A stretch of DNA of 64,000 bases, from contig CAVRAD010000009.1 in the NCBI GenBank assembly GCA_963718845.1, positions 125,171 through 189,170 of the forward strand, in the 5' to 3' direction. The translations under genes were made by a program, and so were the position numbers. Numbering within the stretch: position 1 is the stretch's first letter; each line of letters starts with the position of its first letter. Shown piece after piece: positions 1-56,025 of the stretch. The notes under the pieces are model-generated. The model ran no database searches, was not told where the DNA came from, and saw only the letters and a list, made by a program, of their open reading frames with translations. The DNA is from an uncultured Acidobacteriota bacterium. GTDB taxonomy: Bacteria > Acidobacteriota > UBA6911.

Positions 1-247
1 CCCGGGCCGAATTCGGTCAGGATTTCGATGCCGTTGGTCGCCGGGTAGTTGCACGCCGTGACCATGCGGATGCGTTTGCCCGACCGCACCTCGACGGTGC
101 AGATGCGGCACACGCCGTAGGGCTCCAGCAGCGGGTGATGGCACAGAGTCGGGATCTTGATCCCAAGCTTCTGCGCGATATTGAGGATCGGGGTCCGGTC
201 CTCGGCTTCGGTTTCAATCCCGTTGATTTTTACTTTGATAGTTTTCA
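1..247 (-). CDS. N-terminal 2Fe-2S ferredoxin-like domain of a [FeFe]-hydrogenase large subunit / NuoG-like protein (HydA/HndD-type). Partial; the gene continues beyond the window start.
   Basis: Minus-strand translation from the ATG at 247 gives MKTIKVKINGIETEAEDRTPILNIAQKLGIKIPTLCHHPLLEPYGVCRICTVEVRSGKRIRMVTACNYPATNGIEIL. This is the typical plant-type 2Fe-2S N-terminal domain (CxxxxC...CxxC pattern) that follows hydB in HydABC/Hnd operons. Confidence 0.6.
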
Positions 248-249
248 TG

Positions 250-2104
250 CTGCGTAGCTCCTGGGAACCTTGCGGATCGCCTCGCGTTTGCAGGCCTCGA
301 TGCATGCGCCGCATTTGACGCACTTGGCTTTGTCCAGCGTGTGCGTTTTCTTCACTTCGCCTGAGATCGCTTGCTACCGAGCAGCCCCGTGACGCAGGCA
401 TGGCAGCCGTCGCATTTTTCCGGGTCGATCGTGTACTCGATCAGTTCTTTGCAGACGCCGCCCGGGACAACGATGGTCTTTGATGTGCGCGTCGTACTCG
501 TCTTTGAAGTAGCGGAGGGTTGAAAGAACCGGATTGGGCGCCGAGGTGCCGAGGGCGCACAGGCAGCAGTCCTGCATCACCTCGGCCGATTTCCTGGAGC
601 AGTTCGATGTCGCCGGGGACGCCTTTTCCCTGGGTGATTCTGTCGAGCGACATCCAGAGACGTCCTGCAGGCCCTTCGCGGCACGGGCGTGCACTTGCCG
701 CACGATTCTTCGGTCAGGAACGCGATGAAGTAGCGGGCGACGTCCACCATGCAGGTCTGATCGTCCATGACGATCATCCCGCCCGAACCCATCATCGATC
801 CCGCTTCCGTCAGGCTGTCGAAATCGACCGGCATATCGAGATGCGTTTCGGGCAGGCAGCCGCCGGAAGGTCCGCCGGTCTGCACCGCCTTGAATTTCCG
901 TCCGTCGGGGATGCCTCCGCCGATATCGAAGATGATCTCGCGCAGCGAAATCCCCATGGGGACTTCGATCAGGCCGGTGTTGTTGATTTTGCCGACCATG
1001 CGAGAAAACCTTGGTCCCGCTGCTGCCGTTCCAGGGATTGTCGGCGACGTTGCCGGTGCCCATCGAGCTGAACCACTGCGCCCCGCGGTTGATGATCAGC
1101 GGCACATTCGCCCAGGTCTCCACGTTGTTGAGGTTGGTCGGGCGGTTTTTATAGCCATACTCAACGGTGTGGATGTACTTGGCCCGGGGTTCGCCGACGT
1201 TCCCTTCCAGCGAAGCCATGAGGGCCGTGGATTCGCCGCACACGAAGGCCCCGGCGCCCTGGACGATTTCGATGTCGAAATCCATGCCGCTGCCGAGGAT
1301 GTCCTTGCCCAGAAGTCCGTAGTCGCGCGCCTGGTCGATCGCTTTCAGCAGGCGTTCCCGCGCGATGGGGTATTCGTGCCGGATGTACACGAAGCCTTCC
1401 TTGCATCCGATGGCGCGCGCGCCGATGATCATTCCTTCGAGCACGGAGTGCGGATCGCTTTCGATGATGCTCCGGTCCATGAATGCTCCCGGATCGCCTT
1501 CGTCGGCGTTGCAGACGATCACGGGTTCCACTCCGCGGTGCTGGGCGGCATGCCGGCAGGTTTCCCATTTCACGCCGGCAGGGAATCCGCCGCCGCCGCG
1601 GCCCCGCAGGCCGGATCTCTTGATCTCCGAAAGGATCTGTTCCGGCGTCATCTGGAACAGAGCCTTTTCCAGCGCCGTATAGCCGTCGACCGCGATGTAG
1701 TCGTCGATCTTTTCCGGATCGATGACGCCGCGGTTGCGGAGAACCACCAGCTTCTGCTTTGCGAAGAAGGGGATCTCTTTCAACGCGGGGATCGGCCCCT
1801 TTTCCGCCGGAGGCGTGTACATCAGCTTCTTGACGGGCCTGCCCTTAACCAGGTGTTCTTCGACCAGACTGGCGGCGTCCTTCGCCTGGACACCGCAGTA
1901 GAAGATCCCGTCGGGCTGCACGATCACGATGGGGCCTTCAGCGCAGAACCCCTGGCAGCCGGTCCTGATCACCTGCACTTCCTGGGCGAGACCTTTTTTG
2001 TAAATTTCATTTTCCAGAGCCGTCGCTGTTGCGTAAGAATTGCCGGAAACGCATCCGGTTCCTGCGCAAACCAACACATTGGTGCGGAATGCCATGATAT
2101 TCAT
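250..2104 (-). CDS. NuoF/HoxF-family NADH-binding flavoprotein subunit of a multimeric (bifurcating-type) [FeFe] hydrogenase (HydB/HndC-like). Apparent frameshifts near 380, 485, 645 and 1000.
   Basis: ORF 374..2104 carries an N-terminal thioredoxin-like 2Fe-2S domain, then the NuoF core ([28 protein letters not shown]). The polypeptide continues in two other frames (ORF 577..999: [15 protein letters not shown]...ESCGKCTPV; ORF 441..653: [19 protein letters not shown]). The true C-terminus, with a 2x[4Fe-4S] tail ([16 protein letters not shown]), reads through to the stop at 250-252. Confidence 0.85.
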
Positions 2105-2121
2105 ACCTCCCAGCCGGCGGT

Positions 2122-2993
2122 TTAGCCGGTAGTTTCACAGCCACTTGCAAGCGCGTAATCGGTTACAATCTTGCCCCCGAGAACATGGTCTTTGAGAATC
2201 CTCACAATCGCTTCAGGTTTCAGATCCACATATTTCACGGGGGATTGACCGGCTATTTCCACGGTCGCCATCGGCTCCCGGCTGCACAGTCCCGCGCAGC
2301 CCGAGGTGGTGACGATGACATCGGTTACCTTCTGGTTTTCGATCTCCTTCAGCAGGGCGCCCATAACATCCCGCGCGCCTGCGGAAATCCCGCAGGTGCC
2401 CATGTGCACGGTCACTTTGGCCCGTGCCTCTCCGGACCGCAGGGTCAAAGTGCGCTTTGCGTCCTCACGTATCTTTTTCAAGTCATCAATGGACAGTCTG
2501 GGCATTTTCTGCCTCCTTTGGCTTCTCCGGAGTTTTGGCTGGTATTGCTTGACCATCTTCGGCACGGAGGCTATTTTCACCTTTCCGTGCACATCCGTTC
2601 CTACCGTGATCACGGGCGCCAGGCCGCAGCAGCCGACACAGTTCACCGTATCCAGGCCGAACAGTTCGTCCGGTGTGGTCTCGCCCTTCTTGATCTTCAG
2701 TTCGCGCTCCAGCGCATCCACCAGCAGCGGTCCGCCCTGGATATTGCAGGCTGTGCCGTTGCAGACGCGAATTGGATGGCGACCGACGGGCTTGAGGCTG
2801 AAAGCCTTGAAGAAGGTCGCGATGGCCAGGACGGATGTCAGCGGGATCATTCACTCCGGCGGCCACCGCCTCGAGCACTTCGCGAGGCAGGTAGCAATAT
2901 GCCTCCTGGCAATCGAGCAGAATGGCAATCATGCGCTCGCGTTTTGCGCCGTGCTGTTTCGAGGATGTCGTTTACTCTTGAAACATCCACCAT
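2122..2993 (-). CDS. NuoE-like 2Fe-2S subunit fused to an HndB-like thioredoxin-like ferredoxin domain (HydC/HndA-type). Frameshifts near 2845 and 2935.
   Basis: N-terminal MVDVSRVNDILETARRK / MIAILLDCQEAYCYLPREVLEAVAAGVN lies in ORF 2486..2932. It continues in ORF 2122..2850 with VLAIATFFKAFSLKPVGRHPIRVCNGTACNIQGG...CVGCCGLAPV (the NuoE motif), then a second domain VHMGTCGISAGARDV...TTSGCAGLC. A GGAGGAA RBS sits 5 nt upstream of the ATG at 2993. Confidence 0.8.
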
Positions 2994-3014
2994 AGTATTC
3001 CTCCCGCTTCTTAC

Positions 3015-3110
3015 TTTTCCTTTTGTGAGGACGGCTCTCCAGAGCCGTCCGGACGAAATCTGCGCATTTACAGTCCGGACGGCTCTGGAGAGCTGTCCTC
3101 ACAAAATCAA
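3015..3110. repeat. Inverted duplication of a ~30-bp palindromic unit (GTGAGGACGGCTCTCCAGAGCCGTCCGGAC and its reverse complement) with a ~20-bp spacer. Likely an operator or terminator.
   Basis: Read directly. Each unit has an internal 9-10-bp stem (GACGGCTC/GAGCCGTC). Unit 2 is the reverse complement of unit 1 with one mismatch. It lies between the 3' end of the upstream regulator gene and the hydC/nuoE-like start. Confidence 0.7.
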
Positions 3111-3129
3111 TCCCGCTTCGCCTCTTCGT

Positions 3130-3642
3130 GATTGCTTCCCGCAAAATCGCCAGCCCTATAGGCAATGTCAGATCAATTTCGGCCGCACGAAAATCGCCGG
3201 AATCCAGCTCAAAAATCCGATCGTTGACGCGATGACGGAAGCGGATGTTTTTATCCGGCTGTCCGGCGACGAGAACCATGAGAGTCGTTTCGATATCGCC
3301 CAGCGGCGCTCTGTCCAATATGCCTGTGCTGGAAGGTTGCGCGAATCGTTGTGCCCTGTCCCGGCTTGGAGTCGATCGTGAGCGCTCCTCCGGCAGCTTT
3401 GGCTGCGGCGGCCAGCAGCGGCAATCCCATCCCAACCTTGCGCGTGGTCCTCGTCGTAAAGAACGGGTCCGTTACTTTTGCCAGCGGTGTCCGCATCCAT
3501 GCCGCGCCCGTTATCGCGGACACGACAAGACCATGGCATCTCCAGGCAGGTCCTCCCATATCTCGATTTCAATTGCGCCGGCGCCGGCTTCCAGGCTGTT
3601 CTGCGCGATATCCAGGATGTGCAATGCGAGATCTTCCATCGG
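3130..3642 (-). CDS. Histidine-kinase-like ATPase (HATPase_c) protein, hfsC / anti-sigma-regulatory-factor-like, associated with the hydrogenase locus. Several frameshifts; the 3' end is uncertain.
   Basis: MEDLALHILDIAQNSLEAGAGAIEIEI (from the ATG at 3642), VRDNGRGMD, DPFFTTRTTRKVGMGLPLLAAAAKAAGGALTIDSKPGQGTTIRATF (N-, G1- and G2-box-like motifs) are spread over ORFs 3511..3858, 3168..3572, 3251..3559 and 2929..3435. Confidence 0.6.
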
Positions 3643-4378
3643 CCTTCCTCCGCCGAGGATTGTCCTGCCGCCTTCCCCGGTCAACGCGCGCCGCAATTCC
3701 GCCAGCGTGGCTTCTTTCATCAGCACGAATGTCGCCGCCCGTGCGACGTCTTTGGGCTCGTGGGCATCGGAAGCGCAGAGAATCGGATATTCTCCTTTTG
3801 GAGCGAACGACGCGCGCGCCCGAGGAAGCGAGCGTTCGCTGCGAAACCTCGATCGCATCCAGAGGCAGGCCCGGGGGAATAAATCCCAGCTGGCCGATGA
3901 TGCCGAATCCCTCTCTGTCGACGTGAGAGGCGATGGCCAGGCCGTCGACGTCGTGGATGGCGGCGACCACTCGGTCCAGGTTCAGCGTGGTCGCGCCCGA
4001 GAGCAGGTGCTCCTCGAAACCCAGGACTTCGCCGGATTCGTTGGCGATCACCTGCATGCCGAATGCGCTTTCGTCGTTTCGCCCGGGCAGCGATCGGTAC
4101 ACCTTGGATTGAAGCTCCATCGCGGCGGCGATGTTGGGCAGCAGTCCCAGGATGTGCACTTCCTCCGAACTGGTGATCTCCATCCCCGGGATTACTGCCA
4201 ATCCGGCAGCATTTCCGGCGCGCTGCACCGCCGCGGCGTTTTCGGCGGAGTTGTGGTCGCACACAGCTATGGAATCCAGGCCCGCCCGGATCGCGGCATC
4301 CACGATGGCAGACGGATGCATGTCCAACTCAGCGCATGGGGACAGGCAGGTATGGATGTGTGTGTCGACCATAAACAC
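3640..4378 (-). CDS. PHP-domain metal-dependent phosphoesterase. Frameshift near 3800.
   Basis: MFMVDTHIHTCLSPCAELD...IAVCDHNS...GMEITS...HILGL...ASHVDRE, then a C-terminal PILCASDAHEPKDVARAATFVLM in ORF 3511..3858. These are typical PHP motifs. The same neighbourhood (PHP, HATPase, DRTGG, HydS) occurs in Thermotoga/Thermoanaerobacter hydrogenase loci. Confidence 0.7.
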
Positions 4379-4380
4379 CT

Positions 4381-4731
4381 TCAGACTGTCCTCCTTCCGC
4401 GAACACCCTGGGCAAAAAGAATCCCGATGGCGTCAAAAGCCTGCAGGGGGGTGGAGATGATCGGGATGCCGATTTCGTCTGCGCGAGCGACCGTGTCCGG
4501 TTCCGGCTGTCTACCGTTGACCAGAACAATCGCGGCCAGATTGTTGAGCTGGGCGACGGCCACGATGTTCACGTGCTTTTGCATGGTGACCCAGATATCG
4601 CCTTCGCGGCTGTTTCCCATCACGTCCGAGAGCAGGTCGGACGCATAGCCCCCCTGGATTTCCCGGTCCACTGCGGAGCTTCCAGCCATCACTGTGCCTT
4701 CGATACTTTGTGCGGCTTCGGCGACGTTCAT
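4381..4731 (-). CDS. DRTGG-domain protein (CBS-associated regulatory domain).
   Basis: A 116-aa intact ORF: GGYASDLLSDVMGNSREGDIWVTMQKHVNIVAVAQLNNLAAIVLVNGRQPEPDTVARADEIGIPIISTPLQAFDAIGILF. Its start overlaps the stop of the upstream HydS-like gene (ATGA). Confidence 0.7.
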   Translation of the reverse strand: MNVAEAAQSIEGTVMAGSSAVDREIQGGYASDLLSDVMGNSREGDIWVTMQKHVNIVAVAQLNNLAAIVLVNGRQPEPDTVARADEIGIPIISTPLQAFDAIGILFAQGVRGRRTV

Positions 4732-6062
4732 GGTTGTCCTCCGACTGCGTGTCTTTGAGTTCTAACAAGGCCGGCAAGCTGCTCGATCCGGTTTTCGAGC
4801 TCCCGCGCCAGAAGAAAACGCACAATTCCTTGTCCGCGTCGCCGAGCACGACATCCTCGGCAAATGCCCGGCAGGAGGGGGCGCCGCATGCGCCGCAATC
4901 GATCCGGGGCAATTCACCCAGTATCCTGTCCCGTTCCTTCATTTTGAGGATGGCTCTGGAGATGTCCGCGTCCAGCGGCCGCAGCGGCCGGCCGGTAAGA
5001 TACTCGTCCATCAGGAATTCCTTTTTCCTGTACGCTAATTCCACTTCGTGACGGTCCACCATGCATCCGGCCGGCAGGTTCTGCTGAAGCTTGATCGCTT
5101 TGCCGCGCGCCAGGTAGGGATTTTCGACGGTGAGACATCCTCCGACGCAGCCTTCGGGACACGCATGGCATTCGATATAGCGGTATTTGCGCAGCCGACC
5201 TTTTTCGATGTCATCCAGTATGCGCATCACGTTGGGCAGTCCCGCTACAGACAGCGTGTTTTCTGCCGGCAGCGACCGCGGGAATCTGCCCAAGAAAGGC
5301 CCAATCCAGACCCGAGGCGGACTCGACCGGGTCGATTTTGTATTCGGTTTCCTGGACTCTCGAAACGGCGGCCGCCAGGGTCTGGAACAGATCGCAGATC
5401 GAGACTGCCGCGTCGAGATGGGACCGCTGCATGCCGGGGTGCTCCAGAATCGCGACAATCTTGGCCGGGCAGGGAGTGATATACACGGCTCCGATTTTTT
5501 CCAGCGGCAGTCCGGTTTCTTTCGACAGGCGGAGCTTCGCGGCTCGCGCGGAAATTTCTCTGGGGGCCAGCACGGGCAGGAGTTGATCGACCAGTTCCGG
5601 GTATTTCACCTGCAGCAGCCGCACCACGGTCGGGCAGAAGGAGGAAATCAGAGGATATTGTCCCCGGTATTCGTTCATGAAAATCTCCGTTGCGAGGGTG
5701 ACGGCGTCGCACGCGGGCGAGACGCTTTCGACATCGTCGAAGCCGCACTGTTTCAGGGCGGTAAAGATCATGCCGGGGAAAACTTCCGAATCGAACTGGG
5801 CGTAGAGCGCGGGGGAGGGAATAGCCACCTTGCATTCGAATTTGGAGAGGTCGGCCATCTGGTCGGTCAGCGGGACGATGGCAGCCCGCGGACAAACCCG
5901 GATGCATTCGCCGCAGTCGATGCACCGGTCGGCGAGCTTCACGGCTCGCTCATTGCGAATGCGGACCGCGGCGGTCGGGCAGACGCGCATGCAGGACATG
6001 CATCCGTCGCATCGTTCCACGTCAAATCGCAATGAGTGATGATATTGAGCAACCATTTTCAA
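4729..6062 (-). CDS. Sensory-type [FeFe]-hydrogenase-like protein (HydS/HfsB-like): N-terminal 2x[4Fe-4S], an H-cluster-like domain with variant motifs, and a C-terminal Fe-S domain. Frameshifts near 5270 and 4845.
   Basis: ORF 5211..6062 has CDGCMSCMRVCPTAAV / CIDCGECIRVCPRAAI, an L1-like ISSFCPTVV and an L2-like ITPCPAKI. ORF 4511..5458 continues with an L3-like YIECHACPEGCVGGC and LPRIDCGACGAPSCRAFAEDVV. The last 40 aa (ARELENRIEQLAGLVRTQRHAVGGQP*) sit in a third frame. Non-canonical L1/L2 motifs are characteristic of sensory rather than catalytic hydrogenases. Confidence 0.7.
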
Positions 6063-6498
6063 GCCTTATGACCGTTTGTTTCACCCGGATATGAAGCCGG
6101 GTGCCCCGACCCACTTCCGAACTGATATTGAATTCATCCGCGTTTCTTCGAATGTTCGGCAACCCCATCCCGGCTCCGAATCCCATTTCTCTCATCTCCG
6201 GAGTGGCCGTCGAGTAGCCTTCCTGCATTGCCAGATTGATGTCCGGGATGCCCGGGCCCCTCGTCTTCGATGCGAAGCGTGATGTCTTCGCTGCTGACGT
6301 TGAGCCGGACTTTCCGCGCGTGGCATACATGACGAGATTCATCTCCGCCTCATACGAAACGATGGCGACGCGTCGCACCACCGCGGGATGAACGCCGAGG
6401 CGCTTGAGCGTATCCTTGATTTGAGTAGAAACTTTTCCCGCATTTGCAAAATCTCTGCCCAAAACGCTATAGGTACTTTCAAGTGCCTCCGCCATCAT
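6022..6498 (-). CDS. HATPase_c-domain protein (anti-sigma regulatory factor / Ser-kinase-like), a second copy. Compensating frameshift pair near 6260-6300.
   Basis: MMAEALEST...VVRRVAIVSYEAEMNLVMYA...GPGIPD...GFGAGMGLPNIRRNADEFNISSEVGRGTRLHI. Between ~6300 and ~6260 the alternate frame reads ARKVRLNVSSEDITLRIEDEGPG, the expected kinase-core sequence, whereas the ORF frame gives SGSTSAAKTSRFASKTRGPG. Confidence 0.7.
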   Translation of the reverse strand: MMAEALESTYSVLGRDFANAGKVSTQIKDTLKRLGVHPAVVRRVAIVSYEAEMNLVMYATRGKSGSTSAAKTSRFASKTRGPGIPDINLAMQEGYSTATPEMREMGFGAGMGLPNIRRNADEFNISSEVGRGTRLHIRVKQTVIRLENGCSISSLIAI

Positions 6499-6499
6499 T

Positions 6500-6876
6500 T
6501 GCTCTCTGAAAGTGCCATGTAAATCCGGCCGGCGGCTTCAAACATTTTGAACGGCGTGCCGAGAACCGGGATCTTTGATTCTCTCGCCAGGGAGAGGATG
6601 TCTTCGCCGGGTTTCTTGCCGCGCACAAAAACCACTCCGCATAGGTCCGCCACAATGGCCGTTCGTGATCACCTGTGTGCTGACAAGACCGGTGAGAAGA
6701 AGCGTTCCCGTTTTGCTTGTAGCCAGGACATCACTCAGCAGGTCCGCAGCTCCCACCGCAGCGACTTCTACCGAGAGGTCGTCGCCGTTGAGCACTTCGG
6801 CTCCAGGAGGTCCCGGATGTCGGCAAGTGTGAGTTGCTTCAGACCTGTCATTGAACCGGACATTTTCACCTTCGCT
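6500..6876 (-). CDS. DRTGG-domain protein, a second copy. Frameshifts near 6815 and 6655.
   Basis: Reconstructed as MSGSMTGLKQLTLADIRDLL / AEVLNGDDLSVEVAAVGAADLLSDVLATSKTGTLLLTGLVSTQVIT / RTAIVADLCGVVFVRGKKPGEDILSLARESKIPVLGTPFKMFEAAGRIYMALSESK* over three frames. The stop overlaps the ATG of the downstream HATPase gene. Confidence 0.65.
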
Positions 6877-6899
6877 AGTGTGCGGGGACCTTGTGAAAT

Positions 6900-7760
6900 C
6901 CATTGCCCCTGTTATGGCTTGCTTCTGCTGCCTTTGTGCGGCCGATAACCAGATTGCCCTTGCGGATAACCCTGGCTGCCGGAATTTTTCTGGCCGGGCA
7001 GGATTCCCAGCAGAGCCCGCAGCCGGTGCATTTGGTGTGATCGACATACGTGGCGTTGTGCCGGACCTTCACCCGGAAGTTGCCGACGAATCCTTCGACC
7101 TCTTCCACTTCGCTGGAGGACATCAGCTTGATGTTCGGGTGCTTTCCGACCTGGACCATCTTGGGCGTCAGGATGCACGCGGCGCAGTCCAGCGTGGGAA
7201 AGGTTTTGTCGAACACGGCCATGTGCCCGCCGATCGAAGGCTGCTTTTCGACCAGATATACGGTGCGGCCCGCATCGGCGATATCGAGCGCGGCCTGGAT
7301 TCCGGCGATGCCGGCGCCCACGACCAGAGCCGCGGGATTCACCGGGACGGTCTTGTGGGGCAGCGACTGACAGGTTGGCCGCCTTGGCTACCGCACCGGC
7401 AAGGAGCGCTTTGGCTTTTTCGGTCGCCGCGTTGGGATCGACCGTCACCCAGGAGCAGTGCTCCCGGATATTCGCCATCTGGAACAGGTAGCGGTTCACG
7501 TTCGCCCTCTCGCAGGCCCCGCGGAACGTGGGTTCATGCATGAGCGGCGAACAGGAGGCAACGACGACCCGGTCGAGACCGAGGTTTTTGATGTCGTCCT
7601 CGATGAGGATCTGGCCGGGATCGGAACACATGAATTTGTATTCCCGGGCTATGACTACTCCGGGCAGTTTCTTGGCAAATTCCGTTACTTCCGCAACATC
7701 CACTTTGCCGGAGATATTCGTGCCGCAATGGCACACATAGACGCCGATCTTGGTACTCAT
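6900..7760 (-). pseudogene. hdrA: HdrA-like (heterodisulfide reductase subunit A) N-terminal fragment: the Cys-rich N-domain, start of the FAD domain and first ferredoxin motif only. Frameshifted near 7360 and ~6960 and C-terminally truncated.
   Basis: ORF 6912..7760 MSTKIGVYVCHCGTNISGKVDV...YKFMCSDPGQ...VVVASCSP...ANIREHCSW. ORF 6875..7342 ALVVGAGIAGIQAALDIADAGRTVYLVEKQPSIGGHMAVFDKTFPTLDCAACILTPKM...CTGCGLCWESCPAR. After ~300 aa the next gene (DRTGG) begins, so the C-terminal ~350 aa normally present in HdrA is absent. Confidence 0.7.
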
Positions 7761-7769
7761 GCGATCTCC

Positions 7770-8640
7770 TTATGCGTATTTGGCCGTGACTTCCGTCGCC
7801 GGGACGATGCAGTCATTCAATCCCAGGCCTTTCGAATCCAGTCCGAAGGCAACGCCCATCAATTGAGTGAAATACACAATTGGAAGATTGAAATTCGTGC
7901 CGTAGGTCTTGTTAATGGCTGATTGAAACGCATCCAGGTTCATTTGACATAGCGGGCATGTTACCGCAATGCATTGCGCGTCGTACTGCTGGGCGCAGAG
8001 AAGGAGATTGCGGCAGAGGCGAAGCGCGACGTCCTTGCGTATTCCCATCAGCGAACCGCCGCAGCACACCGTCTTCATCGGATAGTAGGTCGGAGTTGCG
8101 CCGAGCGCTACAAGCAGCTTGTCCATCATGGTCGGATTGTCCGCGTCGTCTTCGATGCCGTAGGGCCGGGCGATCTGGCAGCCGTAATAGGGCGCCACGC
8201 GCAGCCCTGTAAGCGGATGCTTCACGAGCGATTTGATGCGATCGAGCCCGACATCTTCCACGACTGTCTGAAGGAAGTGCTTTGTAACGATGCCTCCTTC
8301 ATAGCTCAAGCCCGCCTCGGCGAGAGCCGTATTTACTTTGCTCTTAATTTCCGGGAATTCGGCCAGGTAGGTTTCCGTTTTGCGCAGGTTGGTGTAGCAG
8401 GCGCTGCAGGCGGTGACCAGCGTATCGCCTATTTTCTTCGCCTGGCACAGGTTGCGCGCGCTCAGGCTGAAGGAGAGGGCTTCGTTTACGCTCATGTAGG
8501 CGGTGGCGCCGCAGCAGTTCCAGTCTTCGAGTTCTACCAGTTCGATCCCCAGCGCCTTGGCAACGCGCGGCCACCGATTCTTGGTACGGCCTTCCGGTTG
8601 CTTCCAGAGAGCATCCCGGGTAGTAGGCGTAGCGCATCAT
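7770..8640 (-). CDS. hdrB: Heterodisulfide reductase subunit B-like (two CCG domains). Frameshift near 8500.
   Basis: N-terminal MMRYAYYPGCSLEATGRPYQESV (ORF 8344..8640), then ORF 7770..8495 with ACSACYTNL...YYGCQIARP...TVCCGG...TCPLCQMNLD. Confidence 0.8.
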
Positions 8641-9221
8641 TCACCTCCCAATTCTTTGGCTTTGGCAACAATTTTCCGAAGTCCCTCGATGTCGCGAACC
8701 TTTTTCCCGAATAGGGGAAGGCGGTTGTGAGTAATCAAGCCCGAGTCCGACAGGCGCAAGGGACATTCCACTCAATGGGCTTTGTCGACAATCATGACTT
8801 TAAGCATCAACGAAGTCTCGTGGTTGCGCCCCTTTTTGTTGACAATGTCGAAGAATGCCCTCGATAAGGCGGCTGCATTCTTGCTGCGCTTCCTGTTTTC
8901 CCGCATGGCCATTCTTTTGAGCATGTACATGATGTCCGTGATCTTGATCTCCTGAGGGCAGCGGTGCATGCATTGATAGCAGGAAGCGCAGGTCCAGATG
9001 GTGGTGCTGTCCAGCACCTTGTCCCGCATCCCCGCCCGGATCATGGCAAAGATCTGCCGCGGCGTTTCCTCCATTGCCCATGAGACCGGGCAGGATCCGC
9101 TGCAGGTCCCGCACTGGATGCAATCCTTGATCTTTTCTCCGCCTGGGATGCGATAGATCTCGTCAAGGAAATTCAAATCCATGGCCTGTTCATAAATAAC
9201 CGTCTGCTGCACTCCATTCAT
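8637..9221 (-). CDS. hdrC: Heterodisulfide reductase subunit C-like (2x[4Fe-4S]) with an in-frame TGA at 8770-8772.
   Basis: ORF 8772..9221 has CIQCGTCSGSCPV...CASCYQCMHRCPQEI. The same frame continues after the TGA as VECPLRLSDSGLITHNRLPLFGKKVRDIEGLRKIVAKAKELGGE*. The stop overlaps the hdrB ATG. Confidence 0.7.
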
Positions 9222-9928
9222 GAAGAGCCTCCGGTGCCCGGCGCAATCTCACGGAATCCTAAGGGATGCTGTGCATCGCGGGCTAAACGACGTATACCTG
9301 TTTTCCTCGATTTAATATCAAAAGATAAAATTCCCGAGGGCAGCCTTACCCTCCCATCGGGTCCTCCATCTTCATGGTCTGAACTGTAGCGTGAACAAAT
9401 TACCTTATTGAGCGCGATTATAGGACACGGGTTGTCCTACTGAGTATGTTTTATATGCACTTAACCGGCCATATTTTGTGAATTCGTGGAATAAAAATAT
9501 AAAGTCAAATAATACAAGGATATAACAGGAGTATATTTATTCTATTTGAAATATTGCATGAAAAAGTCGGCGTGAAAAATCCCAAATTGTGGTTGAATGA
9601 ACCAATTATGCGGGTCAAATAACCCAACATGCAGGTCGCCGTGCCTGGTTATAGTGTCCCTTCAGTAAGATTCCTGATGCCAGATTCCAGATTTGGAAAC
9701 ACTACTGTCCGGTTAAGGATTTGCGCTGATTTGGTTTGTTTAGCGCATCCATTTTTCTGGCCGATAGGGATTCCAGTTTTTTCGCGAAGCATGAAATCCG
9801 GCCCGTGGTAGTATAGTCAGCCGCAATAGAATTTTGACAATCTGGTCCGAAATGATTGGAGTGGTGCCACAGGTTTTCAGCGAAGGACGCTTCATGTTCA
9901 GTCTTCCGCCTATTCTCCCGGACTTATA

Positions 9929-10831
9929 ATGGATCTAAATTACATACTGGGCGTTTTTACGGCAATCTTTTGCGGAGTTTGCATGCAAACCGGCATCATT
10001 CTCCAAAAGAAGGCAGTGAACGACATGCCCACAGCCGACAAAACGCAAAGGTTCCTGGCGGCGCTTCTTAAAAACCCTCGATGGCTGGGAGGCCTCGCAC
10101 TGGAATATGGCGTGGGCACCTGTGCATTCATGATCGCACAGAGCCTGATCGGTCCGGCCCTGGTTCCCGGGCTTATGGCCTCGGGCTTGATTGTTCTGGC
10201 AATTGGTTCGGTCAAGATAATTGGAGAAGCACTCAACCTATCGGAATATATTGGGATTGCCCTGCTGATGGCTGGAATCTTGTTGCTCGGTCTAAGTGAG
10301 CTTGAAATAAACGTGGATGTCGTCCGGGATCGTCTGGCGGATTCAAACACTGCTTTACGAATTGCCATCCTTAGCATAAGCCTCTTCTTGTTATGGGGCT
10401 GGACCCATTTTCAGTCGCTCAAGCTTGCACGACGAAAGGGCATTCTCATGGCCTTTTCGAACGGATTTCCATTCGCAATCTCCAATTTCTGGATCAGTCC
10501 GCTCATAGCTGTGTTCGCAGTTGTCATGACCGGCAATGGCAATTGGCGGCAGACCGGGCTGTTTGTGTTGGCCAGCGTTATTCTTGTGGGATGCAATGTT
10601 CTTGGCATCAGGCAGACCAACGAGGCATTCAAGTATGCCCAGGCAAGCAATGTCATCCCGGTACAGCAGCTGTCAGTGCAGATTACGCCCATCTTGTTTT
10701 ACTTTTACGTCTATGCCCTAAAGCCCTCGAAGACTATTTCCGCCGTGTTTATCCTTGTAGCCGTTGCACTGATTATCCTTGCGGCGTTCCTTCTGGGCAG
10801 AAGGCAGTCGGAGCTTGAAAAGATAAAGTAA
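9929..10831 (+). CDS. Integral membrane protein, DMT-superfamily (EamA-like) transporter, ~10 TM helices.
   Basis: A 300-aa hydrophobic ORF with two similar halves and no frameshift. Identity comes from general EamA-like topology only. Confidence 0.5.
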   Translation: MDLNYILGVFTAIFCGVCMQTGIILQKKAVNDMPTADKTQRFLAALLKNPRWLGGLALEYGVGTCAFMIAQSLIGPALVPGLMASGLIVLAIGSVKIIGEALNLSEYIGIALLMAGILLLGLSELEINVDVVRDRLADSNTALRIAILSISLFLLWGWTHFQSLKLARRKGILMAFSNGFPFAISNFWISPLIAVFAVVMTGNGNWRQTGLFVLASVILVGCNVLGIRQTNEAFKYAQASNVIPVQQLSVQITPILFYFYVYALKPSKTISAVFILVAVALIILAAFLLGRRQSELEKIK

Positions 10832-10866
10832 ATCTCTGCACCATCGATTTATTCATTCGTAAATCG

Positions 10867-12720
10867 TCATTCGACGGTGACACTTTTTGCGAGGTTGCGC
10901 GGTTGGTCGACATCGCATCCGCGCAGCACGGCGATGTGGTAGGCCAAAAGCTGCAGGGGAACGATCATCAGTATCGGGAGCAGGCAATCGGCGATTTCCG
11001 GTATGCGGATGACGTGTTTAGATAGCCCGGCAATGCGGTCATCGTCCTCGCTTGCCAGGGCAACGATGATCCCTTCCCGCGCGCGCACTTCTTCGATGTT
11101 GCTGATCATTTTTTCGTAGCGCAGCACGGATTTGGGATTTCGTTTATCTCTGGCGGCCAGTGTGATGACGGGGAGGTTCTGGTCGATCAGGGCGTTGGGC
11201 CCGTGCTTCATTTCCCCGGCCGGATATCCTTCGGCGTGGATGTAGGAAATTTCTTTCAGCTTCAGCGCGCCCTCGAGTGCGATCGGATAATGAATGCCGC
11301 GTCCCAGGTACAGGGCGTTATTGCATCGGAGCAGCCTCCGGGCGATTTCCTCGTAGGTAGAGGTCTGATCCAGCATCTGTTCGATGCAATGCGGCACGCG
11401 AGCCAGTTCAGCGAGCAGCGGCTCCATCTGTTCCTGCGGGATTTGATTTCGTGCTCGAGCCAGGTACAGCGCTACCAGGACGAGAACGGCAATCTGGCTG
11501 GTGAAAGCTTTTGTGGAAGCGACCCCGATCTCCGGCCCGCTGCGCGTGTACAGGTTTCCATCGCTTTCCCGGGAAAGCATGCTCCCGACGACATTGCAGA
11601 TCGACAGGATCCTGGCGTGTTTTGCCTTTGCTTCACGGACCGCGGCCAGCGTGTCTGCCGTCTCGCCGGATTGACTGATAGCGATGACAAGGGAATTGGC
11701 GTTGACCAGCGGATTGCGATAGCGGAATTCCGAACCATAGTCGATTTCTACCGGTATGCGCGCGAAATCCTCGATTAAGAATTTGCCGACCAGAGCCGCG
11801 TGCCAGGAAGTCCCGCAGGCCACAATGTGGATCCGCTCGATTTTACTGAGCACATCTTCGGGGATGTTTGCCTCCTCGAGCAGGACCTCTCCGGAGTCCA
11901 GGGAAACACGGCCTGCGATAGTTTCCCGCAAACTGCGAGGCTGCTCATAAATTTCCTTGAGCATGAAGTGAGGAAAGCCGCCCTTTTCGGCCATTTCCGA
12001 ACTCCACTGAACTTCCTGCGGCGTGAATCCGATCTCGTGTCCGTGGAAATCCTGGATGACGACTCCCCCGGGCGAAAGAATGGCTATTTCGCCGTCCTTC
12101 ATAAAATACATAGTGCGGGTATGCTCCAGCAGCGCTGGAACGTCGGATGCCACAAAGTACTCGGTATCGCCCAACCCCACGATGAGCGGCGGGCCGTTGC
12201 GGGCAGCTAAAATCGTTCCCGGGCAGTCGGCCGAAATAATGCAAACAGCAAGACTGCCGCGCAGCTGTTCTATTGCGGCGCACGCCGCTTCGGGGAATGT
12301 CCTTCCCGGCAACATCGACTCCACGAGGTGCGCAATAACCTCGGTATCGGTCTCGGTAACGAACCGGTGGTTGCTTTCCTGCAGCCTGGTTTTCAGCTCG
12401 AGATAGTTTTCGATGATTCCATTGTGCACAACGACGATCCGGCCCGTGCAGTCGCGGTGCGGGTGCGCATTTTCTTCCGTCGGGCGGCCGTGGGTTGCCC
12501 AGCGCGTATGGCCAATTCCATAGTCTCCATCCAACGGTTCGGATTCGAGGGAACGCACAAGATTCGTCAGCTTGCCTGAGGTCCGCCGGATCAAAACCTG
12601 GCGATCGCGCACGACCGCGATTCCTGCAGAATCATATCCGCGATATTCCAGCTTGCGCAGCCCATTGATAATGACGGAAACAACGGACTTTGAACCCACA
12701 TATCCGACAATCCCACACAT
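10867..12720 (-). CDS. glmS: Glutamine--fructose-6-phosphate aminotransferase (isomerising).
   Basis: MCGIVGYVG...[11 protein letters not shown]-terminal Ntn amidotransferase domain, two SIS domains and a C-terminal ...AKSVTVE. 617 aa, full length, no frameshift. Confidence 0.95.
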
Positions 12721-12956
12721 AGATCACCCTCGATTCATCGACTCAGTTTCCAGGGCTCCGAGTGACTTGCCCTGCCGCGCCTTCCAAAAGAAGACTTGCC
12801 CGGGCATTGCTAAACCATATTTGTGTTACAATCCCCGCCGGCGCTCCAAGTCGTGCCAAGATTATAGATTACGTGAGCAAACGGGGCAACTGTCAGTGAA
12901 TTATCGACGCCAGTTGCCGAGGCTCCCTATCCTTTATCGGATAATTGCGGTGAAAC

Positions 12957-13439
12957 ATGGAAATAAAAAACATCCGGCTGTCTGTTCCCGAAAACTGCAA
13001 TATCATCGTGGGTCAGAGTCATTTTATCAAAACGGTTGAAGATCTCTACGAGGCGATCACCACCGGGTGCGCGCACTGCAAATTCGGGATCGCTTTCTGC
13101 GAAGCTTCCGGGCCTTGCCTGATCCGGGTTGAAGGCAACGACGAGGAGCTGATAAGGGTTTCTGCCGAAAACGCCATAATCCTGGGCGCCGGTCACGCGT
13201 TTGTCATTCTGCTCAAAGACGCATTTCCAATCAACGTGCTCAACGCGATCAAAGGCTGCTCCGAGGTCTGCCATGTTTTTTGCGCCACCGCCAATCCGCT
13301 GGAAGCGATCGTGGCCGAAACGGATCAGGGTCGCGGCATCCTGGGAGTGATTGATGGGTTCTCGCCCAAGGGAATCGAAACCGAGGGAGACGCAAAAACA
13401 AGGAGAGAATTCCTGCGGAAAATCGGATACAAAAGATAA
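12957..13439 (+). CDS. Adenosine-specific kinase family protein (PF04008-like).
   Basis: [23 protein letters not shown]...[23 protein letters not shown]...[14 protein letters not shown]...FLRKIGYK matches my recollection of this conserved archaeal/bacterial family. 160 aa, intact. Confidence 0.6.
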
Positions 13440-13467
13440 ACCGGAAACGGTTTATTCGGGAGAATCG

Positions 13468-15900
13468 ATGAGCGCCAAAAACAATGAGCTGTCTCCGCAA
13501 TGTCTGCGCTGGACTTGTGATCCTTCTGTTTTTTCATTCAAGACGACGGCAGAGATACCTCCGCTTCAAGGCATCGTGGAGCAGGAGCGCCCGATCCGGG
13601 CTATTCGCTTCGGCCTCGATATAACCTCTCCTGGTTTCAACATTTATGTGAGTGGCCTGACAGGGACCGGGAAAACGACAGTTATCAAGACCTTCCTCGA
13701 GGAAATCGCCGCGAAAATGCCTTGCCCGGATGACTGGTGTTACGTCTACAATTTCCGGGATCCCTATTGCCCCACGATACTGAATCTGCCGGCCGGGCGG
13801 GCTAAAGGTCTCAAGGCTGAGATGGATGAGCTTGTCCGCCACTTTAAGACCGCTATTCCCAAGGCTTTCGAGTCCAAAGAATACGAAGAGAGCGTAACCC
13901 AGCTTCATCGCGAGAATCAGGTACAGCAGCAGCTCCTTCTGGAAAAGCTTTCAGAAAAAGCGCGCGCGGAACAATTCGAGATCGAAATTTCGAAAGTAGG
14001 CGTTTCTCTGCTGCCTATGATCGACGGAAAACCGATGACCGCCGACCAGTATGAAGCGCTGGATCCGGAGGCCAAAAAGCAGATTGATGTCCGCAGGTCC
14101 GGACTTGACCCGGAGATTCAGTCGTTTCTCCGGCAGGTGCGCGATGCGAACAAAGACAGCCGCGATCGAGTCAACGAAATGCACCGGCGCGTCGGACTCT
14201 ATGTCGTAGGTGTCCGGATTGACGGGATCAAAGAGCAACACCCCGGATTTCCGCAGATAACGTCCTATCTGGACGATGTTCAAGAATACATACTCTCTCA
14301 CCTGGAGGATTTCACCGAAGATTCTGCGAAACAGGATTCATCCGGCTTGTCTCAGCTCCGATTGGATGCGCCGATCGATCCTTTTGCCAAGTACACTGTC
14401 AATATCGTGGTAGACAACACGGATCTCAAGGGAGCTCCGGTAATCATTGAAACCAATCCTACGTATTACAACTTGTTTGGACGCGTGGAACGGCGCGCGC
14501 AGTTCGGCACGCTTTCAGGCGATTTCACTCTTATCCGCGCCGGTTCTTACGCCAAAGCGAATGGTGGATTTCTCGTTGTCAATGCGCACGATGTTCTCCT
14601 GAACGCCGGCGTTTGGGAAACTCTGAAGCGCACGGTGAAAAACAAGGAGGTGTGGATCGAGGACATGACCGAGCAGCTGGGACTTGTCGCGGTTGCGGGC
14701 ATGCGGCCGAATCCTATCCCCGCCAACGTGAAGGTCATCATGATCGGCCACCAGATGATTTACCACGAGCTGTATAGCCTGGACGAAGATTTCCGCAAAA
14801 TTTTCAAAGTGAAAGCAGACTTCGACTCTGAAATGGCCAGGGATGCGCGCGCCTTCGTGGACTATGCCTCCTTCATCAGCTCGCGCTGCCACGACGAGGG
14901 CCTGCTGCACTTCGCCCCGTCAGGAGTGGCGGAAGTGATCGAATACGGCTCATGGCTGGTAGACAATCAGCAGAAGCTGTCGGCCCGCTTCAGCGATATC
15001 GCCGACATCGTTCGAGAAGCGAATTACTGGGCGCGCAACGCCGGTGAACCCATTATTTCCGCCGCGCATGTGAGGCGCGCGATTGAAGAAAAATACTACC
15101 GGTCCAGCCTGATCGAAGAACGGATCCGGGAGATGATCACCGATGGAACGATTCTCGTGGATGTAGCCGGAGAGGCGGTGGGACAAGTAAACGGATTGGC
15201 GGTAATGGACCTGGGAGATATCCGCTTTGGCAGGCCTTCCCGCATCACCGCGAAGACCTTTATGGGCAAGAGCGGTGTCATCGACATAGAACGCGAATCC
15301 AAGATGAGCGGGAAGATTTATGACAAGGGAGTGCTTATTTTGAGCGGCTATCTCGGTTCCAGATTCGCGCAGGAACGGCCCCTGTCTGTCGCCGCCAGCC
15401 TCTGTTTCGAACAATCGTACGACGGGATCGACGGAGACAGCGCTTCCTCGACGGAGCTCTATGCGCTGCTTTCAAGCCTGTCAAAAATTCCCATTAAACA
15501 GGGGATTGCCGTAACAGGATCCGTCAACCAGAACGGCCAAGTTCAGCCCATCGGAGGCGTAAACCAGAAGATCGAAGGGTTTTTCGACGTGTGCAAAGCG
15601 CAGGGTTTAACCGGCACGCAGGGCGTGATGATCCCCGGTCAGAACGCGAAAAACCTGATGCTGCGCCACGATGTCGTGGATGCCGTAGCGGCCGGTACCT
15701 TTCACATTTATGCCGTCAGCACCATCGATGAGGGAATAGAAGTTTTGACCGGTATTCCTGCGGGTGAAAAGACCGATCAAAATGCCTTCCCGGAAGGCAC
15801 TGTAAATTATCGTGTCGAACAGCGTTTGAAGGAATTTGCCGAAGCTCTCCGCACGTTCGGCCGGGAAGAGGAAGCAAGGATTAAAGGATTAAAGGATTAA
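13468..15900 (+). CDS. Lon-related ATP-dependent protease (AAA+ ATPase with Lon S16 protease domain, no Lon N-domain).
   Basis: Walker A GLTGTGKTT, a long helical insert, and a C-terminal protease domain GDSASSTELYALLSSLSKIPIKQGIAVTGSVNQNGQVQPIGGVNQKIEG (Ser-Lys dyad context). The ORF extends to 13351, but the MSAKNN start at 13468 fits better. The stop codon TAA lies inside the GGATTAAA repeat. Confidence 0.8.
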   Translation: MSAKNNELSPQCLRWTCDPSVFSFKTTAEIPPLQGIVEQERPIRAIRFGLDITSPGFNIYVSGLTGTGKTTVIKTFLEEIAAKMPCPDDWCYVYNFRDPYCPTILNLPAGRAKGLKAEMDELVRHFKTAIPKAFESKEYEESVTQLHRENQVQQQLLLEKLSEKARAEQFEIEISKVGVSLLPMIDGKPMTADQYEALDPEAKKQIDVRRSGLDPEIQSFLRQVRDANKDSRDRVNEMHRRVGLYVVGVRIDGIKEQHPGFPQITSYLDDVQEYILSHLEDFTEDSAKQDSSGLSQLRLDAPIDPFAKYTVNIVVDNTDLKGAPVIIETNPTYYNLFGRVERRAQFGTLSGDFTLIRAGSYAKANGGFLVVNAHDVLLNAGVWETLKRTVKNKEVWIEDMTEQLGLVAVAGMRPNPIPANVKVIMIGHQMIYHELYSLDEDFRKIFKVKADFDSEMARDARAFVDYASFISSRCHDEGLLHFAPSGVAEVIEYGSWLVDNQQKLSARFSDIADIVREANYWARNAGEPIISAAHVRRAIEEKYYRSSLIEERIREMITDGTILVDVAGEAVGQVNGLAVMDLGDIRFGRPSRITAKTFMGKSGVIDIERESKMSGKIYDKGVLILSGYLGSRFAQERPLSVAASLCFEQSYDGIDGDSASSTELYALLSSLSKIPIKQGIAVTGSVNQNGQVQPIGGVNQKIEGFFDVCKAQGLTGTQGVMIPGQNAKNLMLRHDVVDAVAAGTFHIYAVSTIDEGIEVLTGIPAGEKTDQNAFPEGTVNYRVEQRLKEFAEALRTFGREEEARIKGLKD

Positions 15901-16010
15901 AGGATTAAAGAGGATTAGAGGATCAAAGGATTAAAGGGGTAGAGGGATATTGGTGGCTGTAACCTGCATCCGGTCCCTTTAATCCTCTAATCCTTTAATC
16001 CTCTAATCCT
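15875..16010. repeat. GGATTAAA-type tandem octamer/heptamer array forming an inverted-arm hairpin.
   Basis: aggattaaaggattaaaggattaaag...ccctttaatcctctaatcctttaatcctctaatcc. Directly abuts and supplies the lon stop codon, and precedes moeA. Confidence 0.85.
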
Positions 16011-17258: not shown

Positions 17259-17356
17259 CGGAATTACGAATTACGAATGACGAATTACGATTGGAATCAT
17301 CCTCCATCAATAATTCGTAATTCGTCATTCGTCATTCGAATTCGTAATTCGTAATC
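17259..17356. repeat. TTACGAA-type heptamer hairpin.
   Basis: ggaattacgaattacgaatgacgaattacga...taattcgtaattcgtcattcgtcattcgaattcgtaattcgtaat, immediately after the moeA stop. Confidence 0.85.
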
Positions 17357-17387: not shown

Positions 17388-17861
17388 TTGACACATGTGG
17401 ATTCGAAGGGGCGGGCGCGGATGGTGGATGTTACGGAGAAGTCCGTTACTTCGCGGCGCGCCGTGGCGGAGTCTTTTGTCCGGCTTTCCCGCAAGACGCT
17501 GTCTCTGCTTCGCGGCGGCGCACTGCCTAAAGGAAATGCATTGGAAACAGCGCGACTTGCTGGCATCCTGGCAGCCAAGCGGACGCCGGACCTCATTCCC
17601 CTGTGCCACCCGCTTCTTCTGACGCATGTGGACGTGGAGGCGGAACCGCGTGGCAACGGCGTGCGGTTTCTCGCCAGCGTCTCCTGCGCCGGAACTACTG
17701 GCGTGGAGATGGAAGCGCTGACGGCTGCATCCGTAGCCGCGCTGACTCTTTACGATATGGTCAAAGCCGTGGAGAAAGGGGCCACGATCGAAAGGGTGCA
17801 GCTGCTGGAAAAAAGCGGCGGCAAGAGCGGCCTCTACCGACGTACTCGGACGGGACACTAG
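17388..17861 (+). CDS. moaC: Cyclic pyranopterin monophosphate synthase.
   Basis: [24 protein letters not shown]...LIPLCHPL...[20 protein letters not shown]; TTG or GTG start. Confidence 0.9.
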
Positions 17862-17921
17862 TGTCCCGTCCCGGAAGTCTCTGGTACACTGAACATGCGA
17901 TCCTAGAGCGCGAGAGGAATT

Positions 17922-20537: not shown

Positions 20538-20738
20538 ATGGCTGAATCGTATCGAAGATGCTCGCATTGCAAAGGAACGGGGAAATGCCGCGCCTGTCAC
20601 GGGGAGGGCCGGTTGGCGCTGCAAAAGGGAAAAGTGTGCACTTTCTGCCAGCCGTACGGCAGCGGGAAATGCCAGAACTGCAAAGGCCTTGGTGGTTACG
20701 ATGCAGCCGGCAATCCGGCACCCAAACCTGAGAATTAG
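20538..20738 (+). CDS. Small DnaJ-type zinc-finger protein (four CxxC motifs).
   Basis: MAESYRRCSHCKGTGKCRACHGEGRL...CTFCQPYGSGKCQNCKGLGG is a CxxCxGxG-type repeat. It starts 3 nt after the mutM stop. Confidence 0.55.
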   Translation: MAESYRRCSHCKGTGKCRACHGEGRLALQKGKVCTFCQPYGSGKCQNCKGLGGYDAAGNPAPKPEN

Positions 20739-20739
20739 G

Positions 20740-20855
20740 AATGACGAATTACGAATTACGAATGACGATTTGAAACATACATTGTGGATAGAGGTTAATC
20801 CTTCGCTGCAATGTATTTTTTCATTCGTAATTCGTAATTCGTAATTCGTAATTTT
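20740..20855. repeat. TTACGAA-type heptamer hairpin with a ~50-nt loop.
   Basis: ggaatgacgaattacgaattacgaatgacga...loop...tcattcgtaattcgtaattcgtaattcgtaat. Confidence 0.85.
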
Positions 20856-21623: not shown

Positions 21624-21657
21624 TTCCAGATTCCGGATTCCAGATTCTGGATTCCGA
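21615..21657. repeat. GGAATCY-type heptamer hairpin.
   Basis: tgattccagattccggattccagattctggattccga, immediately after the coaX stop. Confidence 0.85.
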
Positions 21658-43282: not shown

Positions 43283-43400
43283 TCCTGCACGCATTTGCGT
43301 TATCATAAACCGGCACATCCTATAGGCCTGGGCTTCAGCCCCAGCCTATATTTTAATCTCGAATCTCGAATATCGAATCTCGAATCGCTGCTTATGCCTT
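43205..43400. repeat. TCGAGAT-type heptamer hairpin with a ~110-nt loop containing an internal near-palindrome (cctataggcctgggcttcagccccagcctata).
   Basis: gattcgagattcgagattcgagatgcgagattgcag...loop...aatctcgaatctcgaatatcgaatctcgaatc. Confidence 0.8.
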
Positions 43401-45690: not shown

Positions 45691-45696
45691 ATGCCC

Positions 45697-55924: not shown

Positions 55925-56025
55925 GCCTAATTGATGATTGACGATTTACGATTGAAGGACCCCGATGCTTAGTTTCCATGAGTAATTCGTCATTCGTAAT
56001 TCGTAATTTAGCTATGCTGCTTCCC
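55925..56025. repeat. TTACGAA-type heptamer hairpin (partial arms) with loop.
   Basis: …gatttacgattgaagg...gagtaattcgtcattcgtaattcgtaattt. Confidence 0.6.

Follow-up and report, generated by a model that had tools for sequence, protein, structure and literature searches.

Gene content of the hydrogenase/Hdr locus

A hydrogenase/Hdr locus occupies positions 250–9221 of the 64,000-nucleotide (nt) stretch of DNA analyzed here (the window), which comes from an uncultured Acidobacteriota bacterium, and all genes of the locus are on the minus strand. A preliminary description of this sequence had pictured the locus as dense in broken reading frames, with a truncated HdrA, and as possibly decaying. 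A scan of species-representative genomes with the nuoE open reading frame (ORF) yielded 79 loci, the closest of which belong to Acidobacteriota metagenome-assembled genomes (MAGs), and the reverse complement of window positions 1–9700 was aligned with six loci (L002, L008, L003, L011, L013, and L005). L002 (MFD02979.bin.2.93) shares 94% nt identity with the window over positions 3–9693 (47 gap openings) and 95.9% over 10853–13643 (one gap opening); L008, L003, L011, L013, L005, and L006 are collinear with the locus and 75–84% identical to it, and most of these are short-read assemblies. Indels were called private where only the window had, or only the window was without, a base in an alignment column.

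The operon order is hdrC-hdrB-hdrA(N)-[DRTGG, HATPase, HydS-like, DRTGG, PHP-HATPase]-nuoE-small ORF-nuoF-[nuoG(N)::hdrA(C)]. The hdrC gene (8637–9221; 4Fe-4S dicluster) is shortened to an ORF of 149 amino acids (aa) by private insertions at 8743, 8776, and 8793, and hdrB (7770–8640), which encodes two CCG domains, carries one at 8565. The short hdrA, here called hdrA-N (ORF 7760–6875), comprises 294 codons after repair of its one private insertion (7371). A DRTGG-domain gene (6495–6863) begins 12 nt past the hdrA-N stop and contains two frameshifts (a deletion at 6801 and an insertion at 6666) as well as an in-frame 3-nt insertion at 6847–6849, while the adjoining gene for a histidine-kinase-like ATPase (6066–6498) has a compensating deletion and insertion (6310 and 6256) and a further insertion at 6071, just ahead of its stop. 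The HydS-like protein encoded at 4728–6056, where a deletion at 4804 and an indel at 5293 are private, combines a ferredoxin, an [FeFe]-hydrogenase H-domain, and a C-terminal FeS domain. Its L011 ortholog matched Pfam Fe_hyd_lg_C (E 2e-31) and FeS (E 4e-13), with motifs read by eye, and gave no Pfam hit to a PAS domain. This presumed H2 sensor is the only [FeFe]-type protein of the locus. Between it and nuoE lie a second, intact DRTGG-domain gene (4381–4731) and a gene for a PHP phosphoesterase fused to a histidine-kinase-like ATPase (3099–4378), with five private insertions (3128, 3319, 3485, 3523, and 3832).

The nuoE/hydC gene (2486–2993) encodes a thioredoxin-like [2Fe-2S] protein, whose ortholog matches Pfam 2Fe-2S_thioredx (E 3e-42), and has private indels at 2536 (a deletion), 2849, and 2959. 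The deletion joins nuoE in frame to the neighboring 127-aa gene, which explains the 242-aa ORF at 2122–2850. That small gene (2122–2505) contains no indel, and its conserved product, for which no Pfam match was found, occupies the place of hydD in Bfu operons. Eight private insertions (372, 390, 466, 588, 650, 668–669 [2 nt], 687, and 1000) interrupt the gene for a nuoF/hydB-type (BfuB-like) flavoprotein (245–2104), which is 616 aa long after repair; Pfam domains of the L011 NuoF ortholog are Complex1_51K, NADH_4Fe-4S, SLBB, and two Fer4 (residues 556–607). Of the nuoG(N)::hdrA(C) gene, the window includes no more than the initial 83 codons (1–248, mapped to L011 12592–12840, with a private insertion at 16); the rest lies beyond the window start. 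Also beyond that point, the operon of relatives runs on with mvhD-mvhG-mvhA-hycI (L002 14333–17900 and L011 14333–17964). Since relatives carry mvhD, small and large [NiFe] subunits, and a HycI-type protease, the catalytic hydrogenase of the locus is an Mvh-type [NiFe] enzyme.

Upstream of hdrC, an intergenic stretch (9222–9692) holds private insertions at 9407 and 9521, the last two of the error-rich zone. It is followed by a 1.16-kb segment present only in the window (9693–10853), which lies between glmS and hdrC and contains an unbroken plus-strand ORF for a NIPA/EamA-like membrane protein (9929–10831; 300 aa), with a match to Pfam Mg_trans_NIPA over its full length (E 2e-5). In relatives, just 368–618 nt separate glmS from hdrC.

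Frame-breaking indels inside and outside the locus

The genes of the locus contain 28 private frame-breaking indels, or 3.1 per kb. The preliminary description had counted about 18 breaks in 9 kb: the observation was confirmed, but alignment to relatives shows that the number was too low. The hydB gene has eight rather than four and hdrC, which had been left off the list, has three, while hdrA has a single break (7371) instead of two. Thirteen of the 14 break positions proposed earlier match an indel within about 65 nt, and the other (6960) has no match. The compensating pair in the second HATPase gene was found as described, though with its members 54 nt rather than 40 nt apart. In addition to the frame-breaking coding indels, the zone contains private indels at position 16 (in the next gene), at 6847–6849 (in frame), and at the intergenic positions 6873, 9407, and 9521.

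Baseline references for the rest of the window were fetched via orthologs of PpiD, PdxB, and an OPT transporter. They comprise the sister Nanopore MAGs L080 and L085, the contigs L081–L083 and L086, which are of megahit type (k141) and were treated as short-read assemblies, and, from NCBI, the more distantly related MAG L084. Closest to the window, at 93–96% nt identity, are L002/L080 and L085, which were assigned by names and records to the Microflora Danica long-read catalog; its MAGs were built from Nanopore reads only, with Flye as the assembler and a single round of Medaka polishing (PMC12313526). Frameshifts were counted from three-way alignments and from a tblastn scan for frame changes in which all reference ORFs were used, which together covered 46.3 kb; the stretches at 49.1–52.8 kb and 60.9–64 kb, being without a reference, were excluded. 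This yielded about 25–27 coding frameshifts, or 0.54–0.58 per kb, and a baseline of 0.50 per kb in the best-referenced 38 kb outside the locus. The rate in the locus is 5.4–5.8 times that of the referenced rest of the window (binomial p 1e-9 to 3e-9), which agrees with the roughly five-fold excess first proposed.

The frameshifted genes outside the locus are mrdA (three), mreB, ligA (two), accD, rseP (two), dxr, clpB (five), grpE, mazG (a compensating pair), pdxB (at its end), ppiD, the RNase E/G gene (two), and two unnamed genes. The earlier observation that essential genes (mreB, mrdA, ligA, clpB, and dxr) are broken too is borne out by this list. A 13-kb stretch covering glmS, lon, moeA, and mutM had also been reported as free of breaks; against the references, the region from 9.9 to 23.9 kb shows no coding frameshift. 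At 1.9 breaks per kb or thereabouts, clpB (56004–58595) is a second, smaller hot spot, with five frame changes in 2.6 kb, and indel errors are therefore patchy along the whole window.

The only 1-nt indels within 9.9–23.9 kb are a pair at 17849 and 17872. A reading of these as moaC frameshifts was rejected, and they were dropped from the coding count, because they are matching insertions, one on each arm of an intergenic hairpin. The hairpin, at 17845–17875 (GGGACGGGACAC-TAG-TGTCCCGTCC), has one extra base per arm relative to L080, and its stem stays paired; this looks like a genuine compensatory change, not an error.

Origin of the frameshifts and of their local excess

We put the probability at roughly 0.85 that the frameshifts are single-base consensus errors in a long-read metagenome assembly, and that the operon beneath them is intact and its short HdrA native. 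The lesions are judged to be consensus errors because they are private and insertion-biased, leave the pattern of purifying selection undisturbed, can be repaired, and also occur in essential genes. Against the six relatives, 36 indel bases are private to the window and none is shared, and no 1-nt coding indel at the locus is common to the window and any relative in that alignment. L002 has 8 private indels of its own in 9.7 kb, all at other sites. Once private insertions were taken out and deletions filled, ORFs of 202, 289, 297, 125, 156, 445, 126, 442, 203, 149, and 626 codons were recovered with no in-frame stop left, and their lengths match those of repaired L002 and of the short-read relatives. 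In the comparison with a closely related genome that had been suggested as a check, not one of the 28 lesions was shared with the 94%-identical L002.

Substitutions within the locus, polarized with outgroups, suggest that purifying selection continued on the window branch: 117 of 144 (81%) are at third codon positions, and 115 are synonymous versus 29 non-synonymous (80% synonymous), with no nonsense codon; the L002 branch has 193 versus 54. The window branch is not longer than that of L002 (153 versus 213 changes), and no enrichment of substitutions beside indels was found on it. An origin in a single noisy read with mismatches was considered and rejected, since the window branch has no substitution excess and none cluster at indels. 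The spectrum of the lesions is likewise the same inside and outside the locus, with insertions outnumbering deletions 27:5 in the locus and about 17:3 elsewhere in the window (Fisher p = 1), and the coding lesions of the locus are all 1 nt long except for one 2-nt and one in-frame 3-nt event. The same type of lesion occurs in indispensable genes of the same sequence (mrdA, mreB, ligA, dxr, accD, and clpB), as would be expected of an artifact, and in sister Nanopore MAGs, where insertions predominate to the same degree, such lesions split PBP2, MreB, Lon, PpiD, LigA, and other genes at 0.65–0.8 per kb. The preliminary attribution of the breaks to read-level indel errors is supported by all of these patterns: the indels are private, nearly all of one base, and similarly insertion-biased inside and outside the locus, and their removal restores ORFs that remain under purifying selection. 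Its appeal to a homopolymer site (a run of seven G) as a cause did not hold up. A homopolymer explanation for the locus was rejected, since the locus contains no run of at least 7 and 19 of the 27 one-base insertions are without an identical neighboring base.

That the locus is instead a truly decaying accessory module, with real frameshifts acquired after selection was lost and the C-terminal half of HdrA deleted, is highly improbable. Decay could account for breaks that are about 5.5 times as dense as in the rest of the window and for an HdrA of just 294 aa, but the locus has no nonsense codon, no deletion within genes exceeds 1 nt, L002 shares none of the 28 lesions, and essential genes carry identical lesions. 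Drift long enough to accumulate 28 frameshifts should also have left a raised non-synonymous share and a longer branch, and neither is seen: synonymous changes make up 80% of the total, as on the sister branch, and the window branch is no longer than its sister. The mixed lesions of a pseudogene (nonsense codons, varied deletions, and inheritance by relatives) are likewise not what the locus contains. Bacterial pseudogenes show a deletional bias, the opposite of the 27:5 excess of insertions, nearly all of 1 nt, seen here. Moreover, the length and tail of the short HdrA are kept across phyla, and relatives have the other half of the protein. The genuine decay of a redox module suggested in the preliminary description is unsupported in view of the synonymous changes, the lack of nonsense codons, and the retention of a short HdrA in relatives; judging from these comparisons, the 'decaying locus' is not real as a biological feature.

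Several points weigh against this reading or limit it. The verdict comes from comparative evidence, and an indel-only, insertion-biased, and mostly non-homopolymer spectrum differs from the textbook Nanopore pattern, though sister Nanopore MAGs show the same spectrum. Two breaks recur, within a few bases, in an independent sister assembly: that in ppiD at 23944 in L080 and that in ligA at 40947 in L085. The latter adjoins an A6 run, and L081–L083, L086, and PpiD orthologs 92–94% identical are intact. These shared breaks are either recurrent systematic errors or real shared mutations, so that not every break in the window is necessarily a random error. The end of the error-rich zone at a 1.16-kb segment found only in the window could instead mean a chimeric or strain-mixed join. 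Finally, the C-terminal half of HdrA was seen in relatives only, as the window stops 83 codons into the gene concerned.

Compared with the Nanopore MAGs of Microflora Danica, the window is similar in having single inserted bases that split genes and different in that its rate rises about 5.5-fold over one 9.5-kb stretch. The description of that catalog treats long homopolymers and low coverage (PMC12313526), whereas most insertions in the window lie outside homopolymers.

From about 0.5 per kb over the window as a whole, the error rate climbs to about 3 per kb in the first 9.5 kb. The error-rich zone extends past the window start, with an event already at 16, and its other limit, placed between 9521 and 9929, coincides with the left junction (9693) of the window-only segment; the next private indel after it is at 17849. 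This local excess would reflect poor read support in this assembly, whether because depth is low, a contig ends nearby, or the junction at 9693 varies between strains, and poor read support is likely to lie behind it rather than a property of the DNA. The contig edge or low coverage proposed at the outset is plausible in the same way. A more specific form of this idea, that the error-rich 9.5 kb are a poorly supported graph branch from a minor or mixed strain, joined at a structural variant at 9693, is a variant of the preferred explanation, not a true alternative to it, and seems unlikely. It would fit the point at which the zone stops (between 9521 and 9929, where a segment absent from relatives has its left junction), the unbroken 300-aa ORF in that segment (where about 3 breaks would be expected at the locus rate), and the co-occurrence of related populations in single MFD samples (L013 and L016 are from one sample). 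However, divergence of the window branch from L002/L080 is similar to the left and right of the junction, at about 1.7%, giving no sign of another lineage, and a mixed-strain consensus should scramble substitutions, which here remain 80% synonymous.

Alternatively, the artifacts may be real and their excess due to the sequence itself, with high GC, a modification motif, or local structure degrading base-calling. GC is highest in the first 8 kb of the window (0.57–0.61 versus about 0.54), and the clpB hot spot (5 breaks in 2.6 kb) falls in a bin with a GC of 0.578. Nevertheless, GC and indel density are uncorrelated outside the locus (Spearman 0.09, p 0.70), a GC-based Poisson model fitted there predicts 9.5 events versus the 32 observed, and the 8–10 kb bin, with a GC of only 0.51, is as dense (3.5 events per kb) as the GC-rich bins. 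On these grounds GC was rejected as the cause. No common motif was seen around the inserted bases. L002, which is 94% identical and comes from the Nanopore/Flye/Medaka pipeline of PMC12313526, also shows no local excess at the same locus (8 indels in 9.7 kb, or 0.8 per kb, versus 0.65 per kb for L080 elsewhere). A cause in the sequence itself is thus improbable, and poor read support in this assembly better explains the excess.

With about 55 coding frameshifts in 64 kb, gene callers would list dozens of false pseudogenes for this sequence and would also show a hydrogenase/Hdr module that falsely appears to be decaying; the locus should be read as intact. Polarizing indels against relatives, examining the insertion/deletion spectrum, and measuring selection on lineage substitutions together provide a reads-free test of assembly indels versus decay.

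A split HdrA and its putative complex

The only real biology behind the finding is a conserved split of HdrA around a NuoEF module. HdrA-N, represented by the 287-aa L011 ortholog, aligns to residues 5–258 of 5ODC_A (E 5e-99). The protein consists of the N-terminal domain and the beginning of the FAD domain, the first Cys motif of the inserted ferredoxin domain, and a tail that is conserved. The GxGxxG motif VVGAGIAGIQAALD is found in the hdrA ORF of the window, and the N-terminal domain and FAD start identify the protein as an HdrA; the whole FAD domain, both ferredoxin halves, and the C-terminal ferredoxin are not present on one polypeptide. In all relatives, HdrA-N ends about 30 residues beyond the first Cys motif. 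A protein of about 290 aa is encoded in every related locus, short-read assemblies included. Across twelve loci, which belong to Acidobacteriota, Sumerlaeota (L001), and Fischerbacteria (L023), it has 287–297 codons, an invariant C-x2-C-x2-C-x3-CP motif, and the conserved tail R-x-I-x-x-G-x-L-V-I. Its 90% identity cluster has 20 members, mostly of 287–294 aa and from independent assemblies. When representative proteins were searched with the HdrA-N fragment, most matches were metagenomic fragments or long HdrA-like proteins with several domains, and only two were clear representatives of about 290 aa.

The missing half is encoded after nuoF. In L011, the gene in that position encodes a 585-aa protein whose N-terminus contains [2Fe-2S] and ferredoxin-type FeS domains of the NuoG/BfuA type, while the remainder corresponds to HdrA residues 236–652 of 5ODC_A (E 9e-112), resuming at PFLQAVP with the second Cys motif. 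The best non-HdrA match of this fusion in the PDB is 9MQX_A, a 247-residue 'NADH:ubiquinone oxidoreductase chain G-like protein' (E 8e-38), and its protein cluster has 155 members, mostly of 585 aa. HdrA is split rather than truncated, because each piece retains one four-cysteine half of the ferredoxin domain and the other half is found downstream of nuoF. The preliminary description was correct that the hdrA ORF is short irrespective of indels, but its link to decay does not stand, given a length and tail kept across phyla and a C-terminal half located on the fusion gene of relatives. By the evidence of its conservation, the short HdrA is the native state, not the relic of a truncation.

Five Anaerolineae/Chloroflexi loci (L019, L024, L067, L070, and L071) have a short hdrA-N that directly abuts nuoE, with no regulatory cassette between the two. 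In these, an in-frame TGA (LDCST-U) stands at a conserved Cys where Acidobacteriota have LDCAAC. The TGA, an apparent early stop, presumably encodes selenocysteine.

As a variant of known Hdr/Bfu systems, the split HdrA is both real and conserved. The gene order suggests how its parts might work together: HdrA is divided within its inserted ferredoxin domain, its N-terminal 290 aa would form one protein and the C-terminal 400 aa would follow NuoG/BfuA-type FeS domains in another, and HdrA-N and the fusion protein would presumably reassemble in trans into an HdrA-like flavoprotein. In that case, the NuoG-like clusters could connect the flavin site of this reassembled HdrA to a NuoEF (Bfu-type) NADH/ferredoxin module, in a complex together with an Mvh-type [NiFe] hydrogenase and HdrBC. 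A regulatory cassette may be made up of the HydS-like protein, the two HATPases, the PHP phosphoesterase, and the two DRTGG proteins. From gene content and conservation, we infer both the assembly and the function of this complex. We tentatively suggest that the locus may represent an undescribed enzyme architecture, present in Acidobacteriota, Sumerlaeota, Fischerbacteria, and Anaerolineae, in which the HdrA halves flank nuoE-nuoF and rejoin in trans to place two bifurcation sites in one complex, with control by a HydS-like H2 sensor in Acidobacteriota. If confirmed, it would be a new wiring between two families of electron-bifurcating enzymes. No description of a split HdrA or a NuoG-HdrA fusion was found in the literature searched, which was a limited library.

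The proposed complex resembles MvhADG-HdrABC (PDB 5ODC) in that homologs of HdrB, HdrC, MvhD, MvhG, and MvhA are all encoded in the operon of relatives, and the two HdrA pieces of relatives jointly span HdrA residues 5–652. It differs in that HdrA is split at about residue 258, with its C-terminal piece fused to NuoG-like FeS domains, and in that nuoE and nuoF, and in Acidobacteriota a HydS-type cassette as well, lie between the HdrA pieces.

Similarities to the Bfu family are equally apparent. This family consists of NuoEF-based bifurcating enzymes and includes NiFe-HydABCSL of Acetomicrobium mobile; Bam-Bfu is its only listed member that also has an HdrA module, and the bifurcating BfuB is marked by specific residues, among them the His that ligates the penta-coordinate B2 cluster (PMC9304861). 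The paper on the Bfu 'plug' of tungsten oxidoreductases (PMC12318220) cites PDB 9MQX. By domain content, the locus has the Bfu core, namely a NuoE-like [2Fe-2S] protein and a NuoF-like protein with FMN/NADH, NADH_4Fe-4S, and C-terminal 2x[4Fe-4S] domains. Assigned by domains, the likeness extends to a long NuoF-like protein with extra ferredoxin domains and a NuoG-like subunit of the BfuA type, and the operon shares with Bfu hydrogenase operons a small ORF and an HATPase gene; a [NiFe] hydrogenase is encoded alongside. The BfuA-like subunit of relatives, however, bears the C-terminal half of HdrA, a combination for which no description was found in PMC9304861 or in the other literature searched. 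Bam-Bfu is the closest described pairing of a Bfu module with an HdrA module.

The genes between hdrA-N and nuoE also recall HydS-type sensory cassettes, with a ferredoxin, an H-domain, and a C-terminal FeS domain in one protein, HATPase, PHP, and DRTGG neighbors, and a position directly upstream of nuoE. They differ in that no PAS domain was detected in the HydS-like protein, and a role in sensing or signaling is suggested by gene content. We take this cassette to be akin to the characterized HydS systems that stand beside multimeric hydrogenase operons.

Elsewhere in the window, a second, shorter nuoF-type gene (52807–54072; 421 aa) is intact and unrelated to the locus; a gene of the histone-deacetylase family comes after it in L084. 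Tandem arrays with a period of 7, 8, or 14 (GATTCCA, GAATCTG, TAATTCG, and AGGATTAA) fill many intergenic gaps, at 15876–16010, 17261–17355, 20732–20853, 21616–21656, 34874–34916, 43238–43386, 45737–45863, 54140–54396, and 58815–58853. Similar arrays occupy corresponding intergenic places in L080, L081, L085, and L086, and none lies within 1–15 kb of the window. The N-terminus of the ORF at 44638–45897 is false, consisting of a translated tandem array.

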